Shown one piece after another: positions 2,253 to 52,302 of a DNA stretch of 64,000 nt (positions are counted from its first letter, which is position 1; each line of letters opens with the position of its first letter). The notes beneath the pieces are model-generated. The model ran no database searches. It had not been told where the DNA came from and saw only the letters and a program-made list of their open reading frames with translations. The stretch lies in the IMG/VR virus record IMGVR_UViG_3300029610_000357, positions 52,285 through 116,284 of that record. One strand, given 5' to 3'. Both the position numbers and the translations under genes were made by a program. The stretch is from a virus (Duplodnaviria > Heunggongvirae > Uroviricota > Caudoviricetes).

Positions 2253-2262
2253 TTGGACATAG

Positions 2263-2335
<73 letters not shown>

Positions 2336-2519
2336 ACAAAAAGAGTACATTGTAACTACCAACAATGTACTCAAACTTAGAAAAGAGGTATAAATTATGA
2401 TTCCTACAAGAAATCTTAATAGCTTTGTAAATCTTTCTGAGGTATGAAACAACAGTAGAAAAGCGCAATAATCAAAACTTCACAAGAAAGGAGATAATAT
2501 GATTCCTCAGAAAGATTAA

Positions 2520-2591
2520 CAGGGATAACTGGATTTGAACCAGTGAATACAGCAGTCAAAGTGCTGTGCCTTACCGCTTGGCGATATCCCT
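2520..2591 (-). tRNA. tRNA-Gln(UUG)
   Basis: Acceptor AGGGATA/TATCCCT, anticodon arm CAGCA-CTTTGAC-TGCTG, T-arm ACTGG-TTCAAAT-CCAGT. Confidence 0.9.
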
Positions 2592-3204
2592 ATATGTATT
2601 TTAATTTTAAAGCAGGTCTTCACCTTACAGTCATTTGTGGAATAGTTTGTTCTGCAACATAGTAGATAAGTCTGAGCTTCGAGGAGCGACCTCTAACTTC
2701 TTACCTAAGTCTAAAAGACCAGTTCTATGACATGATCAATACATGCAATGTCAACCCACCATTCAGAATTAAGTTTTATTGTTATATACTCTATTAGCAT
2801 ATATATTCATTTTGAATTTGAACTTGCCCTTAACTGACTTGAGCGACATACCAGCGACTTTTCTTATACACTGTCTTTTGAACAGCTTCACATCAAACTA
2901 CATTATTTGGCTTTTCCACCTTTTACGTACCTGCCAGAGTACGCATTGAAGTGGATTATTCTCCACAGGAGCGTCTATTGTTGTAGCGAAAAGTTCTGTG
3001 CGTTAACCAGACCAAAATGCTGCACAATATCCATTTGCTTGAGAGTTTCTCTCTTGTCCATATCAGATCACTCCGACATAAAAAGAGACACAAAGAACGT
3101 ATCCGTACAATGTATCTCTCCAATTCGACATATGTGCCTAGAATATCTCTCGGACTCATGGCATTGAGTTTTATAACCGAGTTGCTTATGTTTTAAAATA
3201 CAAA
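2592..3204 (-). other. 613-nt ORF-free spacer inside the tRNA array (possible co-transcribed structured RNA)
   Basis: Flanked directly by tRNA-Gln and tRNA-Trp. Only short overlapping shadow ORFs without RBS, and no tRNA fold found by eye. Confidence 0.3.
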
Positions 3205-3276
3205 CACCCTAAGCTGGATTTGAACCAGCACGAACGGTTTTGGAGACCGTCATTCTACCAACTAAATTATTAGGGC
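3205..3276 (-). tRNA. tRNA-Trp(CCA)
   Basis: Acceptor GCCCTAA/TTAGGGT, anticodon arm ACGGT-CTCCAAA-ACCGT, T-arm GCTGG-TTCAAAT-CCAGC. Confidence 0.85.
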
Positions 3277-3283
3277 GATATTA

Positions 3284-3357
3284 CTGACATGACAGGACTC
3301 GAACCTGCAACACCAACGTCCGTAGCGTTGTGCTCTGTCCAGTTGAGCTACATGTCA
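3284..3357 (-). tRNA. tRNA-Arg(ACG)
   Basis: Acceptor TGACATG/CATGTCA, D-arm GCTC..GAGC, anticodon arm CAACG-CTACGGA-CGTTG, T-loop TTCGAGT. Confidence 0.9.
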
Positions 3358-3570
3358 ATAACGAATATGTATTTACCTCTCATACGTACACACTGGCGAG
3401 ACAATACATATTTCTAAAAAGCAACAGTGTGTAAGTATTGCTTTTCTAGGGCGAACTGAAGTGATGAACTCCATCAGAATATCAGAAGAGGTATACATTC
3501 CAATATCCACCAACCATCAGGGTGTTCGCATATTTTTTGGTTAATCTATCGTATAGTTACTAACCTAATC

Positions 3571-3656
3571 ATCCCTGTTGAGGGAATCGAACCCACTCGT
3601 GACCGAAGCCGCAAAATTTACAGTTTTGCCTGTCTCCTTAGCAGTATAAACAGGGA
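3571..3656 (-). tRNA. tRNA-Tyr(GUA), type II with long variable arm
   Basis: Acceptor TCCCTGT/ACAGGGA, anticodon arm GCAAAA-CTGTAAA-TTTTGC, variable arm GGCTTCGGTCAC, T-loop TTCGATT. Confidence 0.8.
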
Positions 3657-3695
3657 TATTAGCCCACAAGTCCGAAGAACATTGTAGGACAAACA

Positions 3696-3770
3696 TCACA
3701 CCAACGAGAGTCGAACTCGTATTGCATCCGTGAAAGGGATGTGTCCTAAAACCATTTAGACGATGGTGCG
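3696..3770 (-). tRNA. tRNA-Glu(UUC)
   Basis: Acceptor CGCACCA/TGGTGTG, Glu-type D-arm GTCT..AGGAC, anticodon arm CATCC-CTTTCAC-GGATG, T-arm ACGAG-TTCGACT-CTCGT. Confidence 0.85.
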
Positions 3771-3776
3771 ATTTAG

Positions 3777-3868
3777 CGTACGGACTGGGCTACGACCCCA
3801 GGATACACATGTTCGTATGTATACAGGATTAGCAATCCTGCGCATTAAACCAGCTCTGCCACCCGTAC
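3777..3868 (-). tRNA. tRNA-Ser(GCU), type II
   Basis: Acceptor GTACGGG/TCCGTAC, anticodon arm CAGGA-TTGCTAA-TCCTG, 22-nt variable arm, T-arm CTGGG-GTCGTAG-CCCAG (non-canonical T-loop). Confidence 0.8.
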
Positions 3869-4917: not shown

Positions 4918-4920
4918 TTG

Positions 4921-5017
4921 CTTATATCCTTCCTTTCATATATCACTATTTTACCACCCCTTCAAAACACTAGGTTTTACCTAGGTTTCTGAGGGGTATT
5001 TAATGTGGTAATTCTGC
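4921..5017 (-). ncRNA. conserved structured element, copy 1 of 3
   Basis: Minus sense: TTACCAC-ATTAAATA-CCCCTCAGAAAC..hairpin..GTTTTGAAGGGG-TGGTAAAATAGTGATATATG-AAGGAAGGA. Homologous to 5107-5202 and 47683-47772. Confidence 0.45.
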
Positions 5018-5106
5018 TCACCACTCAAAATTTTACCTTGAAATACACTTTTTAGTATATATAATTAACTCTTATTTCCTTTTCGAAAATCTGATCTTTT
5101 GAGCAT

Positions 5107-5202
5107 TTCCTTATCCTTCCTTCCATATATCACTATTTTACCACCCCCTGAAGAACGTAGGCAGAACCTAGCGTTTTCAGGGTCAATTAATGTGGTAATT
5201 CT
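5107..5202 (-). ncRNA. conserved structured element, copy 2 of 3
   Basis: Minus sense: TTACCAC-ATTAATTGA-CCCTGAAAACGCTAGG-TTCTG-CCTACGTTCTTCAGGG-G-GTGGTAAAATAGTGATATATGGAAGGAAGGATAAGG. Confidence 0.45.
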
Positions 5203-5213
5203 TTTTGCTGGCC

Positions 5214-6068
5214 TTATTTTTTGTCAGAATTATAGTATTTGGTATATCTATTTAACTGCATTTCACTCTTACAAGAAGTACAATACTGTCTAAGCCGTCC
5301 TTTACGATGCTTTTTCTTTTTTGAGATGTCTCTAAAAGGTTCTCCACAACAGGAGCATACAGAAATCTCAGGATATCCAATAAAGTGAAGGTATCTGTTC
5401 CCAAGATTCTTGAAGTCTGTAATCTCAAGAGCAACATCTCCTGAATCGACAAGAATATCTACAGAGAAGTTTAAGCTATTAACTTTCTTGCTCATTGTTA
5501 TACAATCGCTTCTGAACAGCCTGCCGATTATTTGGCATCTACGTTCTCTTGTACCTACTGTATTACCCAATGAGAATAAATATTTGTAGTCTGTATTCAC
5601 CCAATTATTGTTTTGAGGATTCAGAGCATTATAATACTTGGCCAAGCAAAGAGCAGTGAAGAGAATCTTTTGATCTCTAAGATTCTCTAACCCATTTATG
5701 GTTTCCATTTCAGACTCATAGATCGGCAGTGAATCAATTTCCACAAGAGGATACTTTTTAGCTTTGTGAATGATCTCATCAATGCATGAATACCATTTAG
5801 CTTCTCTGTAGCTCTCACAGGACTCTTTTAAGAACTCATTGATAGTTTTATATACCTGTGCAGGTTCTAAGCCTTTCTCGTGGATGTAATACTTTGCAAG
5901 CAGGGTAGCAGTATATGGGATACTGCTTTCCAACTCTTTTGTTTCTAAAATTTTTTCTACCAGTGTTTTTTCATTCAGTACGATATTAATAACAATCAGC
6001 CTCCTCAAACATAGATGATTCAATTTGTTTAATAGTTTCAATGACGAAAGAATCTCCGTCATATTCAA
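5214..6068 (-). CDS. hypothetical protein with C-terminal zinc ribbon (CSCCG..CTSC); start uncertain
   Basis: ORF track. The 5' 83 nt overlap the upstream gene, so the true start may be internal. Confidence 0.5.
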   Translation of the reverse strand: MNMTEILSSLKLLNKLNHLCLRRLIVINIVLNEKTLVEKILETKELESSIPYTATLLAKYYIHEKGLEPAQVYKTINEFLKESCESYREAKWYSCIDEIIHKAKKYPLVEIDSLPIYESEMETINGLENLRDQKILFTALCLAKYYNALNPQNNNWVNTDYKYLFSLGNTVGTRERRCQIIGRLFRSDCITMSKKVNSLNFSVDILVDSGDVALEITDFKNLGNRYLHFIGYPEISVCSCCGEPFRDISKKKKHRKGRLRQYCTSCKSEMQLNRYTKYYNSDKK

Positions 6069-7128
6069 AATCTCCTGATTCAGCTCTTACAGGATAAGAG
6101 ATCTGGTGATAGTTTCTCTCTAAGAGTCTTTGGACAAGGATGTCTCCAAACATGTCCCATACAAACTGCTTACTCTTGCCATTGGTATAGCAGAGGTCAA
6201 GAAGAATGTCACAAGCTTTCTCAGGATCAGGAACAGCAGTGGCAACAGCTTCTCTGAACAACATGACTCGGTTATTGATGATGTCTGTTACATTTAGTCC
6301 AAAGACACCCCGGCCATTGATTAGAGCATTCAGGGTTTTCATTTTCTTTGAATACTCGCTGTATAACTTCTTAAGAGCATAATAATCATTCTTGTTGTAC
6401 TCATGATCTCTTTTGAGAATGGAGTAATCAAAATCTGTTTGTGTATTCAACTTCTTTAAGTAGCCATCAAACTCATCCTCAAAGAGCTTACAGATTCGAT
6501 TCATTACACAAGGCCCTGTACCTACAGGTAAGAACTTATAGTAGTGATCTAAGAATTCTGCTTCATCCTCTGTGATAGGTTCTGTATCAGCTTTCTTGAG
6601 CAATTCATCAATCGTGCATCCAAACCAGATAATACATTTATCGTTTGAAGCTTTCACATAATTTGTGTAATCCTTTCTCAGGTGAGAGTAAATGTAGATC
6701 ATGAAGTATGGTTTCTTGTCAGCTACGATTCTCTGATTGAATTCTTTTCGCTTACGATCCTTTGATGAGTCTTCAGGATGGATGTTGTTGTCTTTTCTGT
6801 TATACCAGTAAGATGGGATAGGTTTACACACAATGCCCTTCAATTTGTCAATCGAATTTTGTTGGTATAGCTGACCGCAAATGATTCTGTAATCCAGTTC
6901 TTTAAACTCATCACTGTCAGGAGAGTAATGAGACTGTACTTCAAACTGAGAAGTGATGATGTTTGTTGTGAAGCCAATTTCGTCTCCAAAGGCATCCTTG
7001 TAAGCTTTTAAAATGTCTTTTCGTTTAGGGACAATCTTGTTAGCTTTGCGTTGAGCACAAATGATTGATGGAAGAGGACGATTGTTTTCAACAAGTATTC
7101 TATTGTTAGTTGTGAAGAAGAGGTCTCC
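5986..7128 (-). CDS. YonO-like single-subunit two-barrel RNA polymerase candidate, exon 2
   Basis: Frame stays open upstream of the track start. Own translation from 7128 gives GDLFFTTNNRILVENNRPLPSIICAQRKANKIVPKRKD...LKGIVCKPIPSYWY. Length is 1143 nt (381 codons), joining in frame to exon 1. Confidence 0.6.
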   Translation of the reverse strand, partial: GDLFFTTNNRILVENNRPLPSIICAQRKANKIVPKRKDILKAYKDAFGDEIGFTTNIITSQFEVQSHYSPDSDEFKELDYRIICGQLYQQNSIDKLKGIVCKPIPSYWYNRKDNNIHPEDSSKDRKRKEFNQRIVADKKPYFMIYIYSHLRKDYTNYVKASNDKCIIWFGCTIDELLKKADTEPITEDEAEFLDHYYKFLPVGTGPCVMNRICKLFEDEFDGYLKKLNTQTDFDYSILKRDHEYNKNDYYALKKLYSEYSKKMKTLNALINGRGVFGLNVTDIINNRVMLFREAVATAVPDPEKACDILLDLCYTNGKSKQFVWDMFGDILVQRLLERNYHQISYPVRAESGDFEYDGDSFVIETIKQIESSMFEEADCY

Positions 7129-7464
7129 CGATGTACCCTCGGTTTCCCGATATTTATGGAGAAAGGGGACTAGACTATATCATTACACAGCATAGGTCTT
7201 ACACTGTGATGCTCGGCACTTCCCTTGGGGAGTTTCACCCTTTTGGTACTCTACTTGCTACCGATACCGTATTCCTCGAATATCAGTGCTTTGGATAGTC
7301 GTTTGACTTTCAATTTCTGCTTAGCACAGGATTACCACCGGCATTACCCGCTGAGGCTCCCCTGTTAGCATATGCGTTAACTTCCATTTCCTGAAGCTAC
7401 TGTACGTCACATATACACCTTACATTTGTAAGTTCACCGAGTTTTACTTCGACCAAGTAAACTA
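7129..7464 (-). ncRNA. group I self-splicing intron, ORF-less (336 nt)
   Basis: 5' exon ends UUCGAU. The intron guide GUCGAA (11 nt in) pairs with it, giving a U.G wobble at the splice site. The intron ends ..GGUACAUCG (terminal G). It contains GAUAUAGUCUAGUCC and is homologous to the intron at 56040-56387. Confidence 0.7.
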
Positions 7465-9114
7465 ATCGAAGTCGCAACCGTTAAGTGATTCACATGTATT
7501 ATCCCAATCATTGATCACACAAATGGATGGGAGATACTGGAACCAGTATGAAAGCTGCTCATTGTTCTTCACTTTAAGATTGACGATGTTATAATGGCTT
7601 GTCATTGGAGCTCTGAAGCAAGCTACTTCATCAACCTGTCTATCGATCCAATGCTTGTGATACATTTCTCCTGCTTTAAGCAATCCTGTAACTTCAAGTC
7701 CAAACATGGATTGCATGAGAGCATATGGATCACCAGCAACGATTGAATAATTACCTTTCACTTTGATGCGTCCGATCTTAGCATCTTGGATTCGTTTCTT
7801 GATGAGAGAATGAATCTTAGATCGAATGAAAGGATCTTTGATCATCTCAGGTTCAGCTATGAGTGCCTGAATGTATGTAAAAGCATCTGACTGTAAGATG
7901 TTCTTCTCAGTCATATTCTTACCTCGCAGGAAGAGCAGAGTCTTTCTGTAATCCATCCCAAGAATGTCTTTGATCTCTTTTATGGTTGGCTCACAAAGCT
8001 CTCTTATTTGGTCGTCTGTAAGATAATAGCTCTGTAAGAACTGATAGTTAAGATTCCTTTCAGTATCACATTCTTGTTCGGCTGTTTTGGCAAGAGCAAA
8101 GTGATAATCATACTTCTCAATGTTCTCTAAGTAGTCTTCCATAGAGTCATATGCATCCCATAGCTTAAACATAGATGTTGTAAGTATCACCTGAGCGTCT
8201 CTAACGTCCCTAGGATGGCCCCAAGCATCAATAATGGTATAAGTCTTAGCTACGTCCTCTGCAAAGGCTCTAAAGTCCATACAGTGAAGCATACCTTTAC
8301 AGAATGGCCATCCTCTCATGTTGCCAGATGGAAGAGGAGTATCATAATCTCCATTCAGTTCACCATTCCATTGTCTTGCAAGTTCTGGAAGAACTAATCC
8401 TTCTCCATCAGACCCATTGTGTACAAACTCTTGATCATCAAGAAGAGTTACTTCTGGTTCATCTGAGTTTGTATCATCCACATAAAGAGCTTGTCCCTTA
8501 AAGATCGTCTCACAGTCTTGTACAACAATCACTCCTGATGGTGGAGTAACAACTGTAGAAGAAGAGCAGAAGAGTGCTTTGTACGCTCCGAGCTTGTTTG
8601 GTATGATCGGAACTTCTTTATTCCTCCCGGCATCTACTTTCTCACAGAGAGCATCGTATACATTGTCACTGACAAAGATTACAACACTGTTCTTTAAGCC
8701 TCCTGTGGTTCCTAAGAAGAGATTGTAGTGGAGATCATTTACAATGAATCCATGCTTGCTGCAGTAGTCATAATCTTTCTTTGTGTCGAAGACCACTGTG
8801 AGGTAGTCTGTTTGGAATCGACATTTGTACAGATCATTGTAGAGTAGTGAGATAAGTTCTTTGCTTCCTCTGTTGGCTGAAAGCTCTTTGATCTTCTTTC
8901 GGATTCTTTTTGCTCTTATGTCTGAATCATAGTCATGGATCAATGAGTCAATTGTTCTTAATGCTTCAGAACTTGAAAGAGTAATAATGTCGTCTCCATT
9001 CTCCCTCGCTTCATTGAGTGGTAGAGAAAGTTTCCACTTCGCCTTTCTTAATCGGCTGCTGTGTAGTTTGTAAATATATTTCTGACTCGTTTTTTGCTTA
9101 GAAATAATGATCAC
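7465..9114 (-). CDS. YonO-like single-subunit two-barrel RNA polymerase candidate, exon 1
   Basis: 550 codons ending ...CESLNGCDFD. Splicing to exon 2 restores NGCDFDGD, resembling the NADFDGD/DxDGD metal-binding motif of two-barrel RNAPs. Confidence 0.6.
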
Positions 9115-10502: not shown

Positions 10503-11060
10503 TTTTGACCTCCTTTTTGCTGTTTCTTTTTGTTAATTCAATGAAAAAATGCATTTGTCTGAGTAATGACACTTTTCTTTCGATAAATTCACATTACCAC
10601 AGATGTAGAGTAAAATCAATAGTTTTCTGAAGAAAAAATAAAATTGTGCGAGCAATGACACTTTTTATTTCATTTAAGTACGTTTAAGGAGGCTTAGACT
10701 GGGATTTTTATGTCAAGTGTTTTTTGGAAATTTCTTAAAATAGTGCTTTCTTTGGCTGTTTTACTTGGTTTGTTCTGGATTTTTCTTTGACTTGTTGTAC
10801 TTAGATGGGTAGAAATATGGCTGTTTTATGCGATTGTACAAAAATAAAATAAATTAATTCTTTATATGCTAAAGTATTGACTTTTGAAAAATCAAGTGTT
10901 TTTTGAAAGAAATTTAAAAAAATTTTTACCGTGTGGAATTCTCAGAGAAGGGGTTTGCATTTATATAAGAAGAGCTTGGTTTTTGAAAAAATTTCAGAGA
11001 GATGGGTTTATAGCAGAACAGGTGTTCTATATTTTAGAGTGTGTTAAGAGGTGCGTTTCT

Positions 11061-11167
11061 GGGGAAAGTTTTTATGAGGGGGAGGGGTGTATGTGGGGGT
11101 GTTTGGAAAGAAATGTTGGGGATGTTTTTAGGGGGTTTTGAGGGGGTTAAATGGCGTAGATGTGGGG
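11061..11167 (+). repeat. cluster of nine G4-G5 tracts (G-quadruplex-prone)
   Basis: GGGG/GGGGG runs at 11061, 11078, 11084, 11095, 11118, 11131, 11142, 11164 and others, within ~107 nt of an otherwise AT-rich genome. Confidence 0.6.
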
Positions 11168-11323
11168 TGGAGAAACGTCTGGCTGAACTTGTGGTATAGA
11201 ATTACCAGCTATACAAATATCAGCAAAACTGCGATTTAAAAATAGTTTTAAGTAGCCCCCTAAACACTTGTAAAAGTCCGTAAATAACTATTTACTTGCG
11301 TTTTTGATCAGAAATAGATAGTC

Positions 11324-11356
11324 AAAAAAGCACGTATTTATGCGGGTTTGAGACCG
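11324..11356 (-). promoter_or_regulatory. conserved 33-nt box, copy 2 (AAAAAAGCACGTATTTATGCGGGTTTGAGACCG)
   Basis: Direct repeat of 9341-9374. Confidence 0.35.
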
Positions 11357-12327
11357 TTTGAAAAGATTTTTAAAAATAATTTTTTTAGGGTATTGCAATA
11401 TTTTCGTGGGCATGGTCTTATACAGTTGTTCAAACGAACAGGGAACTTGATAAAACAACAACCGGCAAGGGTTGTAAAACGTGCTTGCCAATATTTCAAC
11501 ATAAAAAGGGGGTAGCCCTACCCCTGTATAAAAATTGGGCGTGTACCTTGATAACTGAATAAGTCTGAATCCGTTCGGCAAGTCTCCGAACAGGTTCAAA
11601 AAATCAGTTTCTTTGGAAACTGAACGACAGGCTAAAACTCTGCCCTGTTACTCATTCGTGACAGGCAGACAAGTAAACCTTTGACTTATTGCCTGTACCC
11701 AATGTCACACGAACGTGGTACAGGATTTATAAGAAGTCGTTGCAAGTCCAAAGAAGTGTAGCAGATTTTTTGAATCGGTTCGCAAAAATACAGGTAGTGA
11801 CAGCCTGTAGACAAACTACCAAACAGACGAAAGACTTCCTAAACGATATATTTTATATTGCTTAGTATAGTCGATATGACAGGGTGTCAAACATTGACGG
11901 TTGACCCAAAACACGTTCACATACTATAAGTCCCTGTGGTGGTGGGGTCCTGTCTTTCAAGTGTTTGAGAAGCGTTGTTGTTGACACTATAACAGAGTAC
12001 CGCCCACGGTAGAAAGTTCTAACAGGCACGACAACGGCTCTCATTCGAGCTGGGTATATTGTGCATTGAATACTACTACTTATCTAGTTCAACGGTAGGA
12101 GACTAGACTCTGTGAAATAATAGGCTATGACAGGTGCAACCCCTGTATAGTATCGAGTGAGTGCATGAACACTTGCGAGCGGTCAAAAGTCCCTTTAGGG
12201 ATAATATTAGAACTCTGTGAGTTCATTAGAATACACCTAACAGGTGTGGTCTAATGAGTTCATAGGAACTCAATGCAACAAATACATATTTTTTAGGGTA
12301 CGACTGTATCCGGAATAGGAGTTTATC

Positions 12328-24054: not shown

Positions 24055-25347
24055 GTGAACGAGATCAATAAAAGGAAATTAGAACTGTTCATGGATGATC
24101 AGCTATGGAGACAAAATATCACACATCAGCAAAGCAAAGGTGTACATAGAGATGTATTAAGAATTGTATGTGATCCAGAATACAAAGCACGGCTTTTAGG
24201 AATGATCTGGGATGGTAATTACAAAATTGCACCTCCGTATGTAGTAGAAATTCCTAAAGACAATGGAAAAGTAAGAGAAGTGTATGTTAATCAGCCAATT
24301 GACAGATTTGTTATGACACAAATCAATTATGTTTATATGCAATTATATGGTCATATGATTCATCCAAGATGTGTGTCTTATCAGAAAGGAATTGGAGTTA
24401 AAAATATCGTAGATGATATTTGTATGGAGCTTAAGAAACATCAAGGAGCTGTTGGGTATAAGGTAGACATTAGTAAGTATTTTGACAGTGTAAGCCGTGA
24501 GGTACTTAATGAAATGATTGATAAAATTGATACAGGAAGTCCTATTGATCAGATTGTAAGAGATTATTATATGGATGATTGTATCATTGATCAGAAAAGA
24601 AATGTTATTGAGAAATACAAAAGTATGACTCAAGGTTGTGCAGTGTCTACATTCTTTGCCAATTGTGTTTTAAGAGATGTAGACGAAGAGTTAAGCAAGA
24701 TGGATATTATTTATTACAGATATTCAGATGATATCTTGATGGTTGGTAAGGATGCAGATAAGGCTTTGAAGATGTTAGGAGAGATGTTAGAAACAAAAGG
24801 ACTTACATTAAATCCCAAAAAGGTAGAAACAGTCAGTACAGATCAATGGTTTACATTCTTAGGAGTGCGAATTAATGGACAGAAGAGAAGTTTTTCTGAA
24901 AAGAGCTTAAAGGAATTTCAGAAACACATTAGAGAATATGTAAATAAGAAAGCAGGAATTGGTAGCGTAAAAGTTGCAATCAGACAAATTAATAAATATC
25001 TGTATTTGAATTTCTTAAGGAATCCGAATGAGTTTGGTTGGGCTGAGTATTTCTTTAGTATTGTGAATGTCGAAGATGATATTAAGACATTAGATATGTG
25101 GATTAAAGATACACTCAGAGGTTTGTATACTGGTAAGAGAAAGGTTGGTGGTCTTGGTGTAAATAAAGTAACTGATGAATGTGGAGTATTAAGAGGGAAA
25201 GGAAAAAACGTAAGTGCAAATCTTGGTAAAACAAGAAGCGATAAAGACATTTTAGAAGAAGCAGGATATATCAGCATGAATGAAATGTATCATCAGTTTA
25301 GATACAGTAAAGAATTGTACAGGGCTTCATTGACGGCTTTATCTTAA
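24055..25347 (+). CDS. reverse transcriptase (stand-alone, class unassigned)
   Basis: RT motifs IPKDNGKVREVY, YKVDISKYFDSV, QGCAVSTFFANCVL, YYRYSDDILMVG (YxDD), LTLNPKKVE, FTFLGVRI, plus a ~140-aa C-terminal extension. GTG start 15 nt after the last KNNYY gene. Confidence 0.9.
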   Translation: MNEINKRKLELFMDDQLWRQNITHQQSKGVHRDVLRIVCDPEYKARLLGMIWDGNYKIAPPYVVEIPKDNGKVREVYVNQPIDRFVMTQINYVYMQLYGHMIHPRCVSYQKGIGVKNIVDDICMELKKHQGAVGYKVDISKYFDSVSREVLNEMIDKIDTGSPIDQIVRDYYMDDCIIDQKRNVIEKYKSMTQGCAVSTFFANCVLRDVDEELSKMDIIYYRYSDDILMVGKDADKALKMLGEMLETKGLTLNPKKVETVSTDQWFTFLGVRINGQKRSFSEKSLKEFQKHIREYVNKKAGIGSVKVAIRQINKYLYLNFLRNPNEFGWAEYFFSIVNVEDDIKTLDMWIKDTLRGLYTGKRKVGGLGVNKVTDECGVLRGKGKNVSANLGKTRSDKDILEEAGYISMNEMYHQFRYSKELYRASLTALS

Positions 25348-32481: not shown

Positions 32482-32631
32482 GGGGACATAGCTTAATAGG
32501 TAAAGCAAAACTATATTTTTCCATAAAGAACTTAAAACTAAAATTTTCATATTAAATATAAACATTTTGTACCTCCCTATTGTAATAAAATAACACTTAT
32601 ATTTATGTGGGTTCGAGTCCCACTGTCCCCA
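32482..32631 (+). tRNA. tRNA-like gene interrupted by a ~75-nt AT-rich insertion; anticodon unresolved
   Basis: GGGGACA-TA-GCTT-AATAGGTA-AAGC ... GTGGG-TTCGAGT-CCCAC-TGTCCCC-A. Acceptor, D- and T-arms are perfect, but no 5-7-5 anticodon arm can be drawn. Confidence 0.45.
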
Positions 32632-44124: not shown

Positions 44125-45114
44125 GTGAGCAATAGGGAAGGACACGAACAAGAAATTGAAGCAAAGACCAGAGAAAAACTTAAGGATTTGCCAGACTATT
44201 TGAACCAGTTCTATTATAGAATGACAGCAAATGGAATGCAGGCAACTACGAAAAGAAGTTACATTGGTTATTGTGTAAATTTCTTAAAGTATTTTTCTCC
44301 TGATTTGAGCATAGATCCAAACGATATAACAGATAGTGATATTGACAAATATATGGATTCAATCACTTATATAAATGGTAAGAAAGCTTCGGTGTCTAGT
44401 AGGGCAACGAAGCTTTCTGCTTTAAAAACATTCTTTGGATTTATGAAAGAAAGGGGAATTATAGAAAGAGATCCAACTAAAAGTATTAGGCCACCTAAGA
44501 ATAAAGGACTTAATCCTGTTGTATACTTAACAGAAACAGAAATTAAGATGGTTGAGCACACAATTCGTACTGGAGCAGGATCTCATAAAGCAAAAGCCAA
44601 ACAAAAGAAATGGCGGAATAGAGATTTAGCCATTTACTTTTTATTCTTATCAACCGGGATAAGGGTAGAAGCCTTGTCTGAGATTGATGTCGAAGACATT
44701 GACTTTCACGATAAAAAACTAATTGTTATAGACAAAGGTGAGAAAGAAATAATACATTTTTTGTCTGACCAGTTGATAGAATATATACAGATTTGGCTCG
44801 AAGATAGAGAAAAGTTTTTAACAGAAAAAGATAAAGAAGAAAAAGCGTTATTTCTTAACACTTCTTTAAACAGGTTGGGAGCAACAGGTATAAGAAGAAT
44901 GATAAAGAAATATACAGCAAATTTAGATAAAAAAATCACTCCACATAAATTGAGAAGTACATTTGCAACTATGATTTATCAAAAGACAGGGGACATTTAT
45001 TTAGCTTCTCAGATGATAGCTCATGAAAATATTAACACAACAAAGCGATATGCGGCTTGTGTCGAAGAGAGCAAGAGAGAAGCATCAGATATGATAGGAG
45101 ATGTCCTTTTTTAA
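44125..45114 (+). CDS. tyrosine recombinase/integrase (XerC/D-like)
   Basis: N-terminal SAM-like domain; TGIRVEAL, HKLRSTFAT, AHENINTTKRY (R..H.R..Y). Confidence 0.9.
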   Translation: MSNREGHEQEIEAKTREKLKDLPDYLNQFYYRMTANGMQATTKRSYIGYCVNFLKYFSPDLSIDPNDITDSDIDKYMDSITYINGKKASVSSRATKLSALKTFFGFMKERGIIERDPTKSIRPPKNKGLNPVVYLTETEIKMVEHTIRTGAGSHKAKAKQKKWRNRDLAIYFLFLSTGIRVEALSEIDVEDIDFHDKKLIVIDKGEKEIIHFLSDQLIEYIQIWLEDREKFLTEKDKEEKALFLNTSLNRLGATGIRRMIKKYTANLDKKITPHKLRSTFATMIYQKTGDIYLASQMIAHENINTTKRYAACVEESKREASDMIGDVLF

Positions 45115-45130
45115 TAAGGAGGAGTGCTTT

Positions 45131-45472
45131 ATGTGCATGAGGGGAGATATTTATTGTGTTGAATTAAAGAGTTATGAAAAACACGTACAAAAAGGAAAGC
45201 GACCAGTATTGGTCATAAGTAATAACAAAAACAACTTTAATAGTCCAGTAGTTACCGTGGTGCCTTTTACATCTGTAACAAAGAAAATGGATTTGGATAC
45301 ACATGTAGTTATTTATAAGAGCTTTGGATTACGATTGGATTCTATGGCTCTTGGTGAACAGATTATGCCTATCGATAAAAGCAGGCTTACAGAAGATAAT
45401 TTGATAGGTCACATAGACGACAAAAGGCTTTTAGAGAAAATAAAAGAAGCATGTATTTGCCAGATTTCATAG
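45131..45472 (+). CDS. mazF: PemK/MazF-family toxin (endoribonuclease)
   Basis: RGDIYCVEL...KRPVLVISNN..N....VVTVVPFTS. Confidence 0.8.
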   Translation: MCMRGDIYCVELKSYEKHVQKGKRPVLVISNNKNNFNSPVVTVVPFTSVTKKMDLDTHVVIYKSFGLRLDSMALGEQIMPIDKSRLTEDNLIGHIDDKRLLEKIKEACICQIS

Positions 45473-45528
45473 AATCATTATAAATTATATGGTAAGATAA
45501 GAAAAGATATATAGAAAGTTGGTGGAAC

Positions 45529-46323
45529 ATGATTATTACAGAGACCAATAATGAAACAATTGTAGAAAATTTGAAAAAGCTTCTTGAATACAGGGTTGGG
45601 TTGACAAAGTATTTAAGAAAAATAGTTAGTAATTTTGATATAGACTTGGTTAGATTGTCACAAATTGTATCAGGTCAGGTTAAGCTAAATGAAATAACAT
45701 TATATGAATATTATGCAATTTGTTGGGGATTCATAGCTTTTAATAAAGAAAGACATAACTTTTTTAAGACTATTGATCTAAAAGAAGCGACTATTGATTT
45801 AAGTTCAAAAACAATAAAGATTTCTCACCATGTAGAAAAGAATAGAATATTAGAGGTTGTGCCTCAAAAGTATTACACAATCAGATCTTCTATTAAAGAA
45901 TTAAATATGTTGACTCATAATGGACTGATAAAAGAAACAGATGTTATAAAACAAACATTGATATCTCATGATGGTAGATCAGGGTCTTTAGGTTATGGAA
46001 GCAAACGTAGCATAGATGAAATCAGGAATATGATACTAAAGGGAACATATTGGAGTGTTCCAATCACCATAGGCACAATTAAGAATGACATCAAAATAGA
46101 AAATGGTGATTTGGTAATTGCCGGAACCTATGAAATAATAGATGGATACCATACTTTCATGGCATTTAAGGGAATCAGCGAAGAAAAGGATTTTCCAGTA
46201 ATATTAAATGTAGTAAAGCTAGAAGATCAGAATGAAATGGAAAGCATCATTCTTCAAATGGATCATAAAAATACTGTTTGGAAAAATAGTTATGCAAAGA
46301 AAGGGGATTCCTATGGAGAATAA
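45529..46323 (+). CDS. ParB/DGQHR-like domain protein with N-terminal HTH-like region
   Basis: YEIIDGYHTFMAF resembles the DGxHR core. Weak call. Confidence 0.35.
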   Translation: MIITETNNETIVENLKKLLEYRVGLTKYLRKIVSNFDIDLVRLSQIVSGQVKLNEITLYEYYAICWGFIAFNKERHNFFKTIDLKEATIDLSSKTIKISHHVEKNRILEVVPQKYYTIRSSIKELNMLTHNGLIKETDVIKQTLISHDGRSGSLGYGSKRSIDEIRNMILKGTYWSVPITIGTIKNDIKIENGDLVIAGTYEIIDGYHTFMAFKGISEEKDFPVILNVVKLEDQNEMESIILQMDHKNTVWKNSYAKKGDSYGE

Positions 46324-47179
46324 GACTTTTATTGATCAGATGGGAGAGAATGGATACACAATTAATGATGTAACATTCTTTTTAGATATGGTTAAATTAT
46401 ACGAAGAACATTACCAGATGTCTATTGCAGAGTTTGATATAAATAAAATCAACAGTATGCTTAATATTTTAAGTCCTAAAAATTCATTAGAAATCAATGG
46501 TCTAAAAGGCTTGTTGGAGTGCTATTTTAAATATCTAAACGCAAGTATGAAATTCAATCCAAAGGATATAAAGATTCAAATTCCTTACTATCTTATGTGT
46601 GAAGATAAAATACAAAGCGAAGAAGAGATTTTAAGCCAGATTCGCAAGTTGGATAATCCAATAGATAAAGTTATCTTGGCATGTCCTTATTATGGGATAG
46701 GTGGGACAGGTATGAGTGAGCTTTTAGGAATAATGAGCTATGATATGGACTATGAAAATAATCAGGTTGCTGTGTATAAACAAAAAATTGATCCAAACAA
46801 AAGAGTGGTTATTGATTTACCAAAGGAAACAATTTTATGGATGAAAGAGGCTATAGAATGTGTTGAATGTAATGGAGAAATGTTTATACAAGATGATCAT
46901 CTCATTAAGAAAAGAGCTACAAGCAAAGGAGATGATCGAAAAAAATGGGTTGATCAAAGAATGAAGCGAATCAATGAAGAGTTAGGCACTCAGTATTCAT
47001 TTGCGTTATTGAGGAGAACAGGATTGATCAATTCTTTTAGAGCTGCGGCAGAACAATATCATATCAACTTGGATGCGATACTTAATTCAGAAATTGGTGT
47101 GAAGATTATGACACAATACTCGTATCAGACTCGAAGAAAGGCAGTGTTGTTAAATAAATACAAAGAATATGTTGATTAA
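46313..47179 (+). CDS. hypothetical protein
   Basis: ATG 46313 preferred over the track start. Confidence 0.5.
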   Translation: MENKTFIDQMGENGYTINDVTFFLDMVKLYEEHYQMSIAEFDINKINSMLNILSPKNSLEINGLKGLLECYFKYLNASMKFNPKDIKIQIPYYLMCEDKIQSEEEILSQIRKLDNPIDKVILACPYYGIGGTGMSELLGIMSYDMDYENNQVAVYKQKIDPNKRVVIDLPKETILWMKEAIECVECNGEMFIQDDHLIKKRATSKGDDRKKWVDQRMKRINEELGTQYSFALLRRTGLINSFRAAAEQYHINLDAILNSEIGVKIMTQYSYQTRRKAVLLNKYKEYVD

Positions 47180-47291: not shown

Positions 47292-47672
47292 ATGAAAGAA
47301 GCAAAAATAAACATCAGAGTGGTAACAGAAGAGGGGGACTACATTGTCGCTGGAAATGTTAGCACAGATTTTAAATTAGCTGCACAAATAAAACGATTAT
47401 ATAATGAAGTTTTATCTGAAAGCGAATTGGTCAAAGTTAAATATAAAAGTGAGGATGATAGTGTTCTAGTTGAACAGGATTATTATTATCCAACTATTAA
47501 TATAGAAGAGAACATTGTAAGTATATTTGATTCAAGAGGCGGAAAAGATATGTCAATCCAATTGCCCGCAATAACAGATATGATTTTTAAAGAAGGAAAT
47601 GGGCGTTTTGATTATACTATAACATTAAAATTACATAGTGGTAAGATTATTTTTAGTGGAATTTTAGAATAG
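47292..47672 (+). CDS. hypothetical protein
   Basis: ORF track; GGAGG RBS. Confidence 0.6.
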   Translation: MKEAKINIRVVTEEGDYIVAGNVSTDFKLAAQIKRLYNEVLSESELVKVKYKSEDDSVLVEQDYYYPTINIEENIVSIFDSRGGKDMSIQLPAITDMIFKEGNGRFDYTITLKLHSGKIIFSGILE

Positions 47673-47682
47673 TCGAGCAGAC

Positions 47683-47772
47683 TTCCCACATTAATTGAAG
47701 CTGAATATCGTAGGCACAGCCTAGTGTTTTATGGGGGTAGTAAAATACTCATATATGCATAGAAGGATAAGG
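47683..47772 (+). ncRNA. conserved structured element, copy 3 of 3
   Basis: CCCACATTAATTGAAGCTGAATATCGTAGG-cacag-CCTAGTGTTTTATGGGGGTAGTAAAATACTCATATATGCATAGAAGGATAAGG. Followed by hairpin AGCAGTCATGAA-ttgt-TCATGGCTGCT plus T-run (47781-47812). Confidence 0.45.
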
Positions 47773-47938
47773 CAACAACAAGCAGTCATGAATTGTTCAT
47801 GGCTGCTTTTGTTATATAAAAATTTATTTTAAAGAAAGGAGACAAAAGAAATGAAAAGGAACAAAGCAAGAGGTTCAGTCCCAATTGGAGACTAAGCAGA
47901 AGGAAATTCTTAATGGTAACCAATCGGGGATTGGAACA

Positions 47939-48136
47939 ATGATGGATAGCACAAGAGTAATTAAACCAAGTGTAAATTATCGATACAAAAAGAAATGGCA
48001 GTGCAAAAAATGTGGTCATATCTTTAGAGCTGGAGAAGCTCATAAAAAGTATCGTAATTATGCAGGTATTCAATTATTTGATATGTGCTGCCCAGAGTGC
48101 GAATCAAATAATTTGTACTCAATGATTCATAACTAA
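47939..48136 (+). CDS. zinc-ribbon protein
   Basis: CKKCGHIF...CCPECES. Confidence 0.5.
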   Translation: MMDSTRVIKPSVNYRYKKKWQCKKCGHIFRAGEAHKKYRNYAGIQLFDMCCPECESNNLYSMIHN

Positions 48137-48167: not shown

Positions 48168-49079
48168 ATGGAACAAACAACAATCTTTTTAAGTCAGGCA
48201 ACAGCAAAAGCTTACACAGAAGGAATTCTATCTGAAATCAAACTTGAAATTGTGAAAGATGAGAAAGATGGAGGAAATAAAGTAGAAGGATACATCACAA
48301 TTAAGACAGATGATATCAATTATACTACTTACAATATTACTGCAAAAGCTACAACAAAAGCAGGTAAGCCAAGTAAATCTTATGAAAATCTGGTTGCATT
48401 TATGGAAAGAGCTCACTCTATCGCTGAAGTTGGAGAAGAGGAAGCTACAAAAGTAAGAGTTAATGGACAGGTAAATCCATGGACATCTTTTAACCAGATG
48501 GGTGCAAAAACTCATAAAGTAGGATACAAAACGGGATTTGTTTCAATTATCTCAGAACTAAAAGATCCACGTAGCACATTTGAAGTTGAGTGTTTCGTTC
48601 AGAGTGTTGATGATGAGTTTGATAAAGAAACTCAGGTTCCAACAGGAAGAGCAATTTTACATACGTTATTACCTATTTACAACAATGGAATTGAGCCATT
48701 AGATATTGTGGTACCTCAGGAATATGCAATGGCTTGTAAGCAGCTGTTTACTCAGCCAGGATGTCAGAGTGCCCATATTATGGGGAATATTGGCAATACA
48801 AAAGAAGAAAAGAAAACTACAGTTGAATATCAGATTGGAGGAGCTGTAACAAAAACTCAGACAAAAAATGTTAATGAGCTTATCTTAACACATGCGGGAA
48901 CAATGGAACAGCAGTATGAGTTGGAAACAATCCAGAGAGCAATTGCTGAATATGATCTTGTCCTTGAATCCAAAAAGAAACGTGCAATGGAAAGCAATAA
49001 AGCAGGTGGCAATAAGACTGTTGGTGGAACAACAATTGGTGCTAGTGCAGCCGCTGGACATAGAAACTTTGGATTTTAG
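48168..49079 (+). CDS. hypothetical protein, possibly ssDNA-binding partner of the downstream ATPase
   Basis: Position only, upstream of the Sak4-like ATPase. No motif recognised. Confidence 0.5.
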   Translation: MEQTTIFLSQATAKAYTEGILSEIKLEIVKDEKDGGNKVEGYITIKTDDINYTTYNITAKATTKAGKPSKSYENLVAFMERAHSIAEVGEEEATKVRVNGQVNPWTSFNQMGAKTHKVGYKTGFVSIISELKDPRSTFEVECFVQSVDDEFDKETQVPTGRAILHTLLPIYNNGIEPLDIVVPQEYAMACKQLFTQPGCQSAHIMGNIGNTKEEKKTTVEYQIGGAVTKTQTKNVNELILTHAGTMEQQYELETIQRAIAEYDLVLESKKKRAMESNKAGGNKTVGGTTIGASAAAGHRNFGF

Positions 49080-50710: not shown

Positions 50711-52302
50711 GATTAATTAATAAGCGAGCCATTGTACAGGTGTTAGGCTGCTTATTAAATAAACCAGACCTGTTAGATACCTATTATATAGAAGAAATAG
50801 ATGTTGACGAAGACTTTTATGTGTATATTTTGAATACAATTAAAGTTTTACATAAGCAAAATGTACCAGTGATTGATGCATTTGCAATTGATTCTTATCT
50901 ATCGTCTTATGATGCTCAGTATAAGATCTTTTCGATGAATAATGGTGTGGATTACATAGAGAACGCTAAGAAAATAGCTGTTCTTGAGAACTTTGAGTAC
51001 AACTACAAGACTCTTAAGAAGTTCACATTATTGAGATATTACGACTATAAGGGAACTGATATTAAATTCATTTATGATCCAACAAAGTTGAATCCTGAGG
51101 ATCAGGAGAGAGAGACAAGGAAATTAGATGAATATACAGTAGATGAGATTATCGAGCTTGTTGAGCTGGAAATGGTTACAAAGCCTAAGTTACATTTTAA
51201 TACAGTTCAATCAGAACAGGGACAGTTAGCTGGATCTGGACTGAAAGAATTAAAAGAGAAATGGAAACAAGAGCCAGAGTTCGGTATTTCATTACAAAGT
51301 CCAACAATGAACACAATTGCCAGAGGAGCTCGATTGAAAAAGTTTTATTTGAGATCAGGTGGAACAGCCTCAGGTAAAACAAGAATGGCTGTTGGAGATG
51401 TTTGTACGTATTCTGTACCATGGTTTTATGATACTTTCGAGTGCGAATGGAAATTTACAGGTTTCTCAGAGCCAGCTTTGTTTATCTCAACAGAATTAGA
51501 GGCAGATGAGATTCAGAGTATGATCATAGCTTTTGTAAGTGGTGTAAACGAATCTAAAATCTTGGATGGTAAATATTCAGGAGATGAAGAAGAACGTGTA
51601 GATAAAGCTATTCAGTTTATTGAGAGCGCCCCTTTATATATTGAACACATTGATGATTTTGATATTAATGATATTGAGAATCTAATCAAGAGATATAAAA
51701 AAGAAAAGGGTGTGCTGTATGTAAGCTTTGACTACATTCATACATCAGTAAAGTTGATCATGCAAATTGCCAGTATGTCAAAGGGAATGAAATTACAAGA
51801 ACATCAGATCTTATATATGTTTGCTATAAAACTAAAAGAACTCTGCAATAAGTTAGGAGTACATATTGATTCAAGTACACAGCTTAATGGAGAGTATAAA
51901 AATGCAAGAGATAAGGATGAGACTCTCTTGCGAGGCGCAAAAAGTATAGCAGATAAGATAGATATAGGTATTATATCAATGCCTCCGACAAGAGAGGAAC
52001 TCAAAGCAGTAGAACCGATCTTAGAAGACAGAGGCGTAACGATGAATCCAAACTTAATTTACCATATATATAAGGTAAGAAGAGGAAAGATTTCACGAGT
52101 TCGATTGTGGCTTCATGCAGATCTAGGTACATGTAGATCATATGATCTGTTTGTAACAAACAATGACAATGAGCTTATACCAGTCGAACAAATAACAATT
52201 GAAAATGTAGAACAGATTCTTGAAGATAACTCAGTAGAGCATGACGACATTCCATTAAATGAAGAAGAACACGATGAAGCTATTAAGCAGTTTTTCTTTT
52301 AG
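50704..52302 (+). CDS. dnaB: DnaB-like replicative helicase
   Basis: Walker A GGTASGKT, RecA-like core, DnaB-type N-terminal domain. TTG start after GGAGGTGG. Confidence 0.75.
   Translation: MVGLINKRAIVQVLGCLLNKPDLLDTYYIEEIDVDEDFYVYILNTIKVLHKQNVPVIDAFAIDSYLSSYDAQYKIFSMNNGVDYIENAKKIAVLENFEYNYKTLKKFTLLRYYDYKGTDIKFIYDPTKLNPEDQERETRKLDEYTVDEIIELVELEMVTKPKLHFNTVQSEQGQLAGSGLKELKEKWKQEPEFGISLQSPTMNTIARGARLKKFYLRSGGTASGKTRMAVGDVCTYSVPWFYDTFECEWKFTGFSEPALFISTELEADEIQSMIIAFVSGVNESKILDGKYSGDEEERVDKAIQFIESAPLYIEHIDDFDINDIENLIKRYKKEKGVLYVSFDYIHTSVKLIMQIASMSKGMKLQEHQILYMFAIKLKELCNKLGVHIDSSTQLNGEYKNARDKDETLLRGAKSIADKIDIGIISMPPTREELKAVEPILEDRGVTMNPNLIYHIYKVRRGKISRVRLWLHADLGTCRSYDLFVTNNDNELIPVEQITIENVEQILEDNSVEHDDIPLNEEEHDEAIKQFFF

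Follow-up and report, generated by a model that had tools for sequence, protein, structure and literature searches.

The 64,000-nucleotide (nt) stretch of viral DNA analysed here (the window; positions 52,285 to 116,284 of IMG/VR record IMGVR_UViG_3300029610_000357) belongs to a phage of about 131 kb that is seen in metagenomes only, one matching contig being labelled human gut. It contains three copies of an intergenic element of about 100 nt; the copy under study (c3) is located at 47675-47775 on the plus strand, and the other two (c1 and c2) at 4919-5019 and 5107-5206 on the minus strand. In our view, there is about an even chance that this element, repeated in the genome of an SPbeta-like temperate phage, combines an extended -10 promoter, an operator and a leader in one cassette. 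If this holds, it would be a four-copy 'address label' by which an uncultured SPbeta-like gut phage marks those lytic gene blocks that are regulated together, and DNA replication would be gated by a conserved, promoter-proximal terminator behind c3.

The three copies align over about 105 columns with a mean identity of 70%, and a degenerate 24-nt core (GGGGTRGTAAAATANTNATATATG) is matched at exactly three places in the window with up to three mismatches, for an expectation of 0.00 from shuffled sequence; an nhmmer profile of the element found nothing beyond c1-c3 in the 64-kb window. Thus, the homology of c3 with the copies on the other arm, which had been proposed in an earlier note on this DNA, holds, and so does its proposal that all copies keep the same orientation relative to local transcription: c3 on the plus strand and c1 and c2 on the minus strand each face their own downstream genes. 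The similarity is not confined to a -10-like and ribosome-binding part, since Box A, about 70 nt upstream, and a small hairpin (47711-47723) are shared as well. The note was also right that the element is re-used at several sites of the genome; its count of three copies is correct for the window, and the total is four, the fourth copy (c4) lying outside it.

Element c3 begins 3 nt past the stop codon (47670-47672) of an open reading frame (ORF) for 126 amino acids (aa), and was delimited by alignments; pattern scans of IMG/VR and metagenomes detected it in every relative. At its upstream end lies Box A (GACTTCCCACATTAATTG, 47680-47697; aligned core TTCCCACATTAATT, 47683-47696; consensus aNTTmCCACAwTwA), which would bind a regulator and has its centre about 63 nt before the predicted transcript start. 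A residual short hairpin (TAGGC-aca-GCCTA, 47711-47723) follows, succeeded by GTGTTTT, as the c3 remnant of the A-tract/hairpin/U-tract stem of c1, c2 and c4. Next comes a block shared with c1 and c2 (GGGGTAGTAAAAT, 47734-47746), which comprises TAG-TAAAAT (47738-47746, alignment columns 64-74) with a -10-like hexamer at 47741-47746 that would be the promoter core. Box C (CATATATGCATAGAAGGATAAGG, 47750-47772), with the predicted start at about 47753 and a purine-rich leader, is kept in all versions. Between the CCAC of Box A and the RTG of Box C there are 72 nt in seven versions and 73 nt in the diverged version L050. Neither strand has an ORF conserved across the element; c1 and c2 have antisense ORFs, which reflect no more than the repeat, and c3 is without one. 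The Rfam 15 covariance models, run permissively to E 10, gave no match at c3 or at the c1/c2 locus, the nearest signal being caiA (28.9 bits; gathering score 55.5) over the terminator and the ribosome-binding site behind c3.

Copy c1 forms a long hairpin and has TGGTAAAAT at 4956-4948; its Box C doubles as the ribosome-binding site of a 40-aa ORF (4918-4796). This ORF is under purifying selection, with many synonymous changes in the diverged relative L044. Copy c2 is found 187 nt upstream of c1, where it immediately follows the stop codon of the gene (5214-6068) for the C-terminal part of a split YonO-like RNA polymerase; its 13-aa ORF is not conserved, as it is frameshifted in L013 and missing from L044. 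The strip between c1 and c2 also holds the best sigma-70-like promoter match of the first 20 kb (TTGAAA-16-TATAAT, 11/12; 5038-5065, plus strand), directed antisense into c2 and the polymerase gene. Every complete relative has a c4, located about 21 kb outside the window on the side of its start. It shares the strand of c1 and c2, lies about 26 kb further along their arm, and is preceded by tape-measure-like genes and followed by a gene for a Rha-type regulator. An example is L139 (1430-1520, minus strand; at about 29.3 kb of contig IMGVR_UViG_3300045988_109075, outside the window), in which the long hairpin is kept and followed by a hairpin GCACCA...TGGTGC and the Phage_pRha gene. Upstream of c4 in L139, the tape-measure-like ORFs are followed by about 430 nt of non-coding DNA that looks intron-like by eye; Rfam gives no support for an intron.

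First pattern scans of IMG/VR returned close relatives only, with the same three copies, and c4 was found with a pattern built on Box A and Box C. A generalised form of it (Box A, 58 N, Box C) matched 41 stretches over all of IMG/VR, with no chance matches and four copies per complete genome; because all 41 fall in this phage clade, the element is a clade-specific four-copy repeat. In metagenomes and genomes, matches to the pattern were mostly due to chance. The seven matches in GTDB genomes were all chance singletons, so the GTDB scan identified no host, and one candidate copy (L028) was rejected as a chance match inside coding sequence. All copies are intergenic and face downstream genes, beginning 3-25 nt past the upstream stop codon or after non-coding DNA, and the arrangement is uniform across at least 12 genomes. 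Copies c1 and c2 precede the 40-aa gene, a 3D-domain gene and a cluster of tRNA genes with a ROOL RNA; c3 precedes the replication operon, which comprises a small upstream ORF (uORF) and genes for a zinc-ribbon protein, YorF, Sak4, helicase, primase, exonuclease and polymerase.

Relatives at several distances were obtained by protein-anchored look-ups. In L043 and L044 (C-terminal part of the RNA polymerase 76% identical) the tandem arrangement (c2' and c1') and the 40-aa gene are kept; c2' is without the small ORF and has a hairpin behind Box C, and c1' has lost the block GATATATG. The more distant L050 (YorF 60%) and L051 (YorF 55%) have kept a c3-type element between the same genes: the MrpR-like gene and a homologue of the 126-aa ORF precede it, and terminator, uORF, zinc-ribbon ORF and YorF gene follow in this order. 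Their flanking proteins are 29-60% identical to those of the window, and the spacer between the boxes is unrecognisable. They retain Box A (TTmCCACAwTwA), Box C (ATRTGCATArAAG), the 72/73-nt spacing, the downstream intrinsic terminator and a TGn+NAnnnT hexamer at the same columns (TGTGATTTT and TGTCAAATT, respectively). Box A, as the putative regulator-binding site, is near-invariant across 22 distinct aligned versions, L050 and L051 included, despite the diverged spacer next to it. In L047 (YorF 86%) and L049 (73%) a different upstream gene abuts the uORF, and element and terminator are both absent. A covariance model and two nhmmer profiles of the element found no homologue in SPbeta, Clostridium phage c-st, Enterocloster phage PMBT24 or 60 loci of the clade with 32-41% YorF identity; a TTACTTCCATGTTCC motif considered in the 38% clade was dropped, being present in three loci only.

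The copies differ in their predicted folds. Long irregular hairpins, made up of an A-tract, a short G+C stem and a U-tract, are formed by c1 (z-score -3.5), c2 (-2.6), c2' (-3.0) and c4 (-2.3); this layout looks like a weak terminator, and two copies were flagged as such. No significant fold is found for c3 (+0.22), c1' (-0.6), L050 (-0.7) and L051 (+0.3). In c3 both outer helices of c1 and c2 are gone, and the description of c3 as a structured element in the earlier note does not stand, its orthologues in L050 and L051 being unfolded as well. The register of the outer helix differs in each paralogue; the inner 5-bp stem is paired in 82% of cells, with two double changes, and its covariation is not above that of shuffles (331-467 of 500 shuffles reach the observed values). 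Variants in the phage population cluster in the hairpin, and the three known for c3 all lie within or beside its loop; Box A and the block from GGTAAAAT to Box C are invariant. Because the variants sit in the hairpin, and because the boxes are kept in L050 and L051 with diverged and unfolded spacers, selection acts on the two boxes and their spacing, with the fold as an optional addition. The element is not a new class of structured RNA. Pairing of Box A with Box C, sequestration of the Shine-Dalgarno (SD) sequence and antiterminator pairing of Box C were each considered and dropped, as they are inconsistent between copies. The same applies to a T-box: GGGUGGUA resembles a T-box sequence, with no match to the model, and the motif is missing from c2', L050 and L051.

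Under the promoter, operator and leader interpretation, host sigma-A RNA polymerase would use the TGn/TAAAAT extended -10 element without a -35 hexamer, and transcription would start about 7 nt past the hexamer, at the beginning of Box C. Box A, at its fixed distance of 72 nt and perhaps together with Box C, would be the site of a phage regulator, plausibly the MrpR-like protein encoded beside c3. The A-tract, hairpin and U-tract that separate Box A from the -10 hexamer in c1, c2 and c4 would be a weak terminator or insulator against transcription from upstream, decayed in c3, and Box C would supply a conserved purine-rich leader, including the ribosome-binding site of the 40-aa gene in c1. 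The alignment is consistent with this: at columns 68-74 all versions have a hexamer whose second base is A and whose sixth is T, namely TAAAAT in c1, c2, c3, c1' and c2', TAAATT in c4, GATTTT in L050 and CAAATT in L051. The longer sequence that corresponds to the TAG-TAAAAT of c3 in the same columns is that of c1 given above, which is shared by c2, TAGTAAATT in c4, and TGTGATTTT and TGTCAAATT in the two most diverged versions. A TG one base upstream of the hexamer is present in c1, c2, c1', L050 and L051.

Behind c3, an intrinsic terminator is predicted at 47780-47813 on the plus strand, with a 13-bp stem that includes 5 G-C pairs and a 3-nt loop (AAGCAGTCATGAA-ttg-TTCATGGCTGCTT, 47780-47808) and a U-rich tract (CTTTTGTT) directly 3' of it. 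The earlier note had recognised this hairpin and its T-run, with an end coordinate (47812) that cuts the T-run short by one or two bases. The fold from the predicted start to the T-run has a free energy of -21 kcal/mol (z -4.4), and terminators at the same site are found in L050 (z -6.3, TTTTTTG tract) and L051 (z -4.9, TTTTTTT tract), so that a terminator follows the element in all three c3-type clades. The c3 transcript would meet this terminator 27 nt after its start, and the replication operon would be expressed only if termination is overcome; otherwise the locus would yield an RNA of about 60 nt. Since the proposed transcription runs straight into a conserved terminator, read-through would have to be regulated, and the retention of the element-terminator arrangement in three clades makes regulated read-through likely; a conditional terminator at c3 is plausible. 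The arrangement recalls the lambdoid late promoter module, pR'-qut-tR', which is the site of Q antitermination: there, too, a promoter (a predicted one here) has a strong terminator tens of nt downstream, and a second -10-like, TG-containing sequence (TGCATAgAA in our element) lies in the initially transcribed region. Unlike this module, the element heads replication and regulator genes rather than late genes, c1, c2 and c4 are without a terminator, and no Q homologue was found.

The short transcript could itself be the product, i.e. c3 could be a small-RNA gene for an RNA of about 60 nt (about 115 nt in L050) with a functional conserved 5' end (AUAUGCAUAGAAGGAUAAG), possibly serving as a decoy to a factor whose other targets are the identical leaders of the c1, c2 and c4 mRNAs. 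In favour of this proposal, three clades keep a conserved 5' segment and a strong terminator with a variable stretch between them, and the SD-like purine tract of c3, c4 and c2' has no start codon behind it. We nevertheless consider it very unlikely: it builds on the predicted start site, no target or partner is identifiable, and the gap of about 40 nt between terminator and uORF is too short for a separate promoter. A leader or attenuator is the simpler explanation, because the replication operon needs read-through. A type I toxin was rejected, the c1 peptide being hydrophilic; the terminator-overlapping peptides (14-25 aa) follow from the homology of the terminators.

For the promoter, operator and leader reading, the closest parallel is the SPbeta repeated element (SPBRE), which constitutes the early promoters of Bacillus phage SPbeta that are bound by MrpR (YopR) (Lazarevic 1999; Kohm et al. 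2023, PMC10516654). Promoters marked by SPBRE and bound by MrpR are those of yorE (the gene immediately before yorF), of yorM (for a 3D-domain protein) and of eight other genes including yonP (PMC10516654); the SPBRE copies that we extracted from SPbeta are conserved -35/TG/-10 promoters. By analogy, and with the same even chance that we give to the cassette as a whole, the element would be a functional counterpart of the SPBRE promoters, unrelated to them in sequence and not homologous. Like SPBRE, it is repeated and intergenic, stands in front of early or lytic operons in a phage of the SPbeta type and would contain the promoter itself. Copy c3 is at a yorE-like position upstream of the YorF gene, and c1 and c2 are at a yorM-like position upstream of a 3D-domain gene; BLASTP showed no similarity between the zinc-ribbon ORF and SPbeta YorE. 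A further likeness is an MrpR-type gene, here a weak match with only putative binding: the candidate regulator is a tyrosine-recombinase-fold ORF (46232-47179, plus strand), two genes upstream of the c3-type element in the window and in L050 alike, and its link to the element is putative. It is 32% identical to its L050 orthologue (E 4e-48), which passes the Pfam cut-off for MrpR_N_CB (33.1 bits; cut-off 27). SPBRE differs in being about 35 bp long (TAGACA-17-TGTATATAAT) and present in about 10 copies. Our element has about 100 nt and four copies, lacks a -35 hexamer, keeps its Box A distal at the fixed 72-nt distance, and includes an internal hairpin as well as a conserved leader. If the parallel is correct, the principle of SPBRE and MrpR would extend from Bacillus phage SPbeta to distant relatives with unrelated sequence, and the copies would be concrete sites for exploring how tyrosine-recombinase-like repressors and YonO-type polymerases divide the transcription programme.

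Several observations weigh against this interpretation. The TG of an extended -10 element is absent in c3 (TAG), c4 (TAG) and c2' (GGG), and there is no conserved -35 hexamer at 16-18 nt (columns 45-50 read ACCTAG, GCCTAC or GCCTAG); a -35 hexamer is dispensable for extended -10 promoters. A generic consensus promoter scan did not call the element sites. Conservation runs more than 20 nt beyond the predicted start, and c1, c2, c2' and c4 form long stable hairpins (z -3.5 to -2.3), both of which suggest a role at the RNA level. A promoter firing into a terminator 27 nt away needs an antitermination step, and a Box A at -63 is in an activator-like rather than a repressor-like position. The MrpR-like ORF of the window scores 16.5 bits on MrpR_N_CB, below the cut-off of 27, and BLASTP showed no similarity of this ORF to SPbeta YopR. 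Finally, element and SPBRE share no sequence similarity: the SPBRE motif (the 15-bp MrpR motif within TAGACAAA...ATATGTATATAAT) is not in the element, and nhmmer and covariance-model searches with the element found nothing in SPbeta.

The extended conservation and the hairpins would be accommodated if the element were a cis-acting RNA made from promoters further upstream, with Box A, hairpin and Box C acting in the nascent transcript as a nut/put-like signal for processive antitermination or as a protein-binding leader, for passing the terminators behind c3 and down the other arm. We consider this unlikely. The lambda nutL/nutR and HK022 putL/putR sites are antitermination RNA sites, and as with these, paralogous copies of the element are found on both divergent arms, each sense-oriented, with linear boxes and a hairpin; c3, between a small upstream ORF and a terminator preceding replication genes, is placed like nutR in the lambda order cro-nutR-tR1-O/P. 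In addition, c1, c2, c2' and c4 have stable hairpins, two-sided changes of hairpin pairs occur in the 76%-identity relative (TAGG/CCTA to CAGG/CCTG, and G:C to A:T), the conservation reaches beyond any promoter core, and -10-like hexamers were seen by eye 25-45 nt upstream of Box A in several copies. Against it, c3, c1', L050 and L051 are without a significant fold, the outer-helix register shifts between paralogues with inner-stem covariation within shuffles, and the hairpin loops are the most variable part; a spacer that is fixed in length and free in sequence rather fits the usual geometry of proteins on DNA, and there is no Rfam match. Unlike nut and put, the element has no conserved two-hairpin fold, its loop sequences are free, and no boxA (NusB/E) consensus is found; there are four copies, one of them in tandem, and no N-like protein was identified. 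A secondary structure kept by covariation in all copies, as expected of put/nut-type RNA, is not seen, with c3, L050 and L051 unstructured and covariation at the level of shuffles.

The phage encodes a polymerase of its own, and the SPbeta-like assignment made above follows from this polymerase, from YorF and from the yorF-yorL gene order. The split, YonO-type, two-barrel single-subunit RNA polymerase is encoded by three ORFs on the minus strand (7462-9114, 5986-6843 and 5214-6068); in c-st the enzyme is split likewise, its pieces being annotated as N-terminal and C-terminal parts of YonO, and the corresponding proteins have 930 and 275 aa in the 76%-identity relative and 831 and 240 aa in PMBT24. 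A YorF-family protein (PF27337) is encoded at 48168-49079, and the genes that follow (Sak4-like, helicase, primase, exonuclease, polymerase) match the SPbeta order yorF-yorG-yorI-yorJ-yorK-yorL. A lysogeny-type block (44125-47179, plus strand), with a tyrosine integrase, a MazF-like toxin, a 264-aa ORF and the MrpR-like ORF, is co-directional with the replication operon, and between them lie only the 126-aa ORF, c3 and the terminator.

To our knowledge, no promoter or regulatory signal has been described for any YonO-type polymerase, and the element could be a set of promoters or initiation signals for this enzyme. This would be attractive because of the gap in knowledge and because of the position of c2 and c1, which lie directly downstream of the polymerase genes and upstream of HU-like and YonJ-like genes. 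In SPbeta, the P_YonO start is in the same relative position, with yonO/yonN before it and yonK/yonJ after it (PMC5467207). For sigma-A promoters, the missing -35 hexamer, the long conserved sequence and the short hairpin are unusual, and the element is confined to phages with this polymerase. We nevertheless judge this reading quite unlikely. Both c4 and c3 precede blocks that do not depend on YonO in SPbeta: c4 heads the Rha regulator gene, and c3 heads a replication operon, which in SPbeta is not among the 37 YonO-dependent late genes (PMC5467207) and has an MrpR-bound SPBRE promoter (PMC10516654). The element has no similarity to the SPbeta P_YonO region, as bounded by the published primers, or to c-st or PMBT24, and its -10-like hexamer is conserved in function and not in sequence, which argues for sigma-A. 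A 15/16-nt match (GTAAAATAAGTGATAT) in the yonN-yonK gap of SPbeta was rejected, both for its alignment score (24, against 21.3 +/- 2.5 for shuffled sequence) and for its location downstream of the published primer-extension window. Stated more broadly, i.e. with Box A, the 72-nt spacer (often with a hairpin) and the AT-rich start region as a recognition signal of the YonO-type polymerase, which would be either its promoter or a signal letting it or the host enzyme pass the terminator before the replication operon, the proposal is just as doubtful for both meanings together.

Hairpin promoters of the kind used by the virion RNA polymerase of phage N4 were considered as well. The likeness is in the few copies per genome, the 5-6-bp hairpin with a 3-nt loop in c1 and c3, and a non-canonical RNA polymerase encoded by the phage. 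Unlike in N4, the loop has neither conserved bases nor a constant length or position: it measures 3 nt in c1, c1' and c3 alone, against 5 nt in c2, 6 nt in L050 and about 13 nt in L051, and in the last two the place of the hairpin is shifted. The N4 enzyme is a T7-like polymerase, whereas that of our phage is of the two-barrel YonO type.

The ROOL RNA next to these genes is full-length (306 bits; 2594-3205, minus strand) and lies amid seven tRNA genes in a cluster at 2262-3868 (minus strand), between the split polymerase genes and the HU-like and YonJ-like genes. This is the position of the 1.7-kb unannotated yonN-yonK gap of SPbeta, which has the P_YonO start and an 'unannotated ncRNA'; no ROOL match was found in that gap, only a DUF3800-VIII RNA (L042, 2410-2475).

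The repeats recombine, which raises the question whether the element has no regulatory role and is instead a site of recombination or what remains of a small DNA segment that was mobile or duplicated. In L016 (IMG/VR) there is a single c2/c1 fusion, with the 187-nt unit deleted, and in L163 (metagenome contig OHJT01024524.1, 1086 nt) the body of c3 is joined to the downstream flank of c4, which may be the junction of an inversion of about 75 kb or an assembly chimera. In addition, tyrosine-recombinase-type genes adjoin c3. The explanation is highly improbable to us: strong purifying selection has preserved Box A and Box C at one and the same gene junction in clades with flanking proteins of only 29-32% identity, there are no terminal repeats or target duplications, and one fixed arrangement is kept in at least 12 genomes, the 1-kb L163 contig being open to the chimera explanation. 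The repeats appear to drive deletions, and perhaps inversions, in natural populations.

The module of element and MKRN ORF that the earlier note had suggested dissolves on comparison, as the two occur separately in relatives. The 14-aa uORF (47851-47895, plus strand) overlaps the TTG start (47885) of the zinc-ribbon ORF (47885-48136, plus strand) in all relatives and ends 8 nt past this start codon; the overlap TTGGAnnnTAA is kept in L047, L050 and L051, with a TTGGTnnnTAA variant in L049. In L047 and L049 the 14-aa ORF (MKRNKTRGSIPIGD and MKKERRGFNPVGD) is directly behind a different upstream gene, without element or terminator, and L022 has element and terminator without the 14-aa ORF. Because it is conserved with or without the element and always overlaps the TTG start, the ORF belongs to the zinc-ribbon gene, probably through translational coupling to a non-ATG start. 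The MKRN shared with the 40-aa ORF behind c1 is, by this comparison, a coincidence of lysine/arginine-rich peptides, because the first four residues differ in diverged relatives (MKNN, MKKE, MTKK and MKKK for the two peptides; MKNN for the 40-aa ORF in L044).

Further features of the window include a 1.8-kb non-coding region between the divergent arms (10503-12327), with several terminator-like hairpins and a G-rich repetitive stretch at about 11050-11170; within it, at 10588-10616, lies TTCACA-17-TAAAAT, with a Box A-like TTACCACA in its spacer. A match to the Rfam tRNA model extends over 150 nt at 32482-32631 (plus strand; 42.5 bits) without an ARAGORN call, and may be an interrupted or degenerate tRNA or a false match. 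A 430-aa ORF (24055-25347, plus strand) matches phage reverse-transcriptase families (phrog_1423, E 9e-30).

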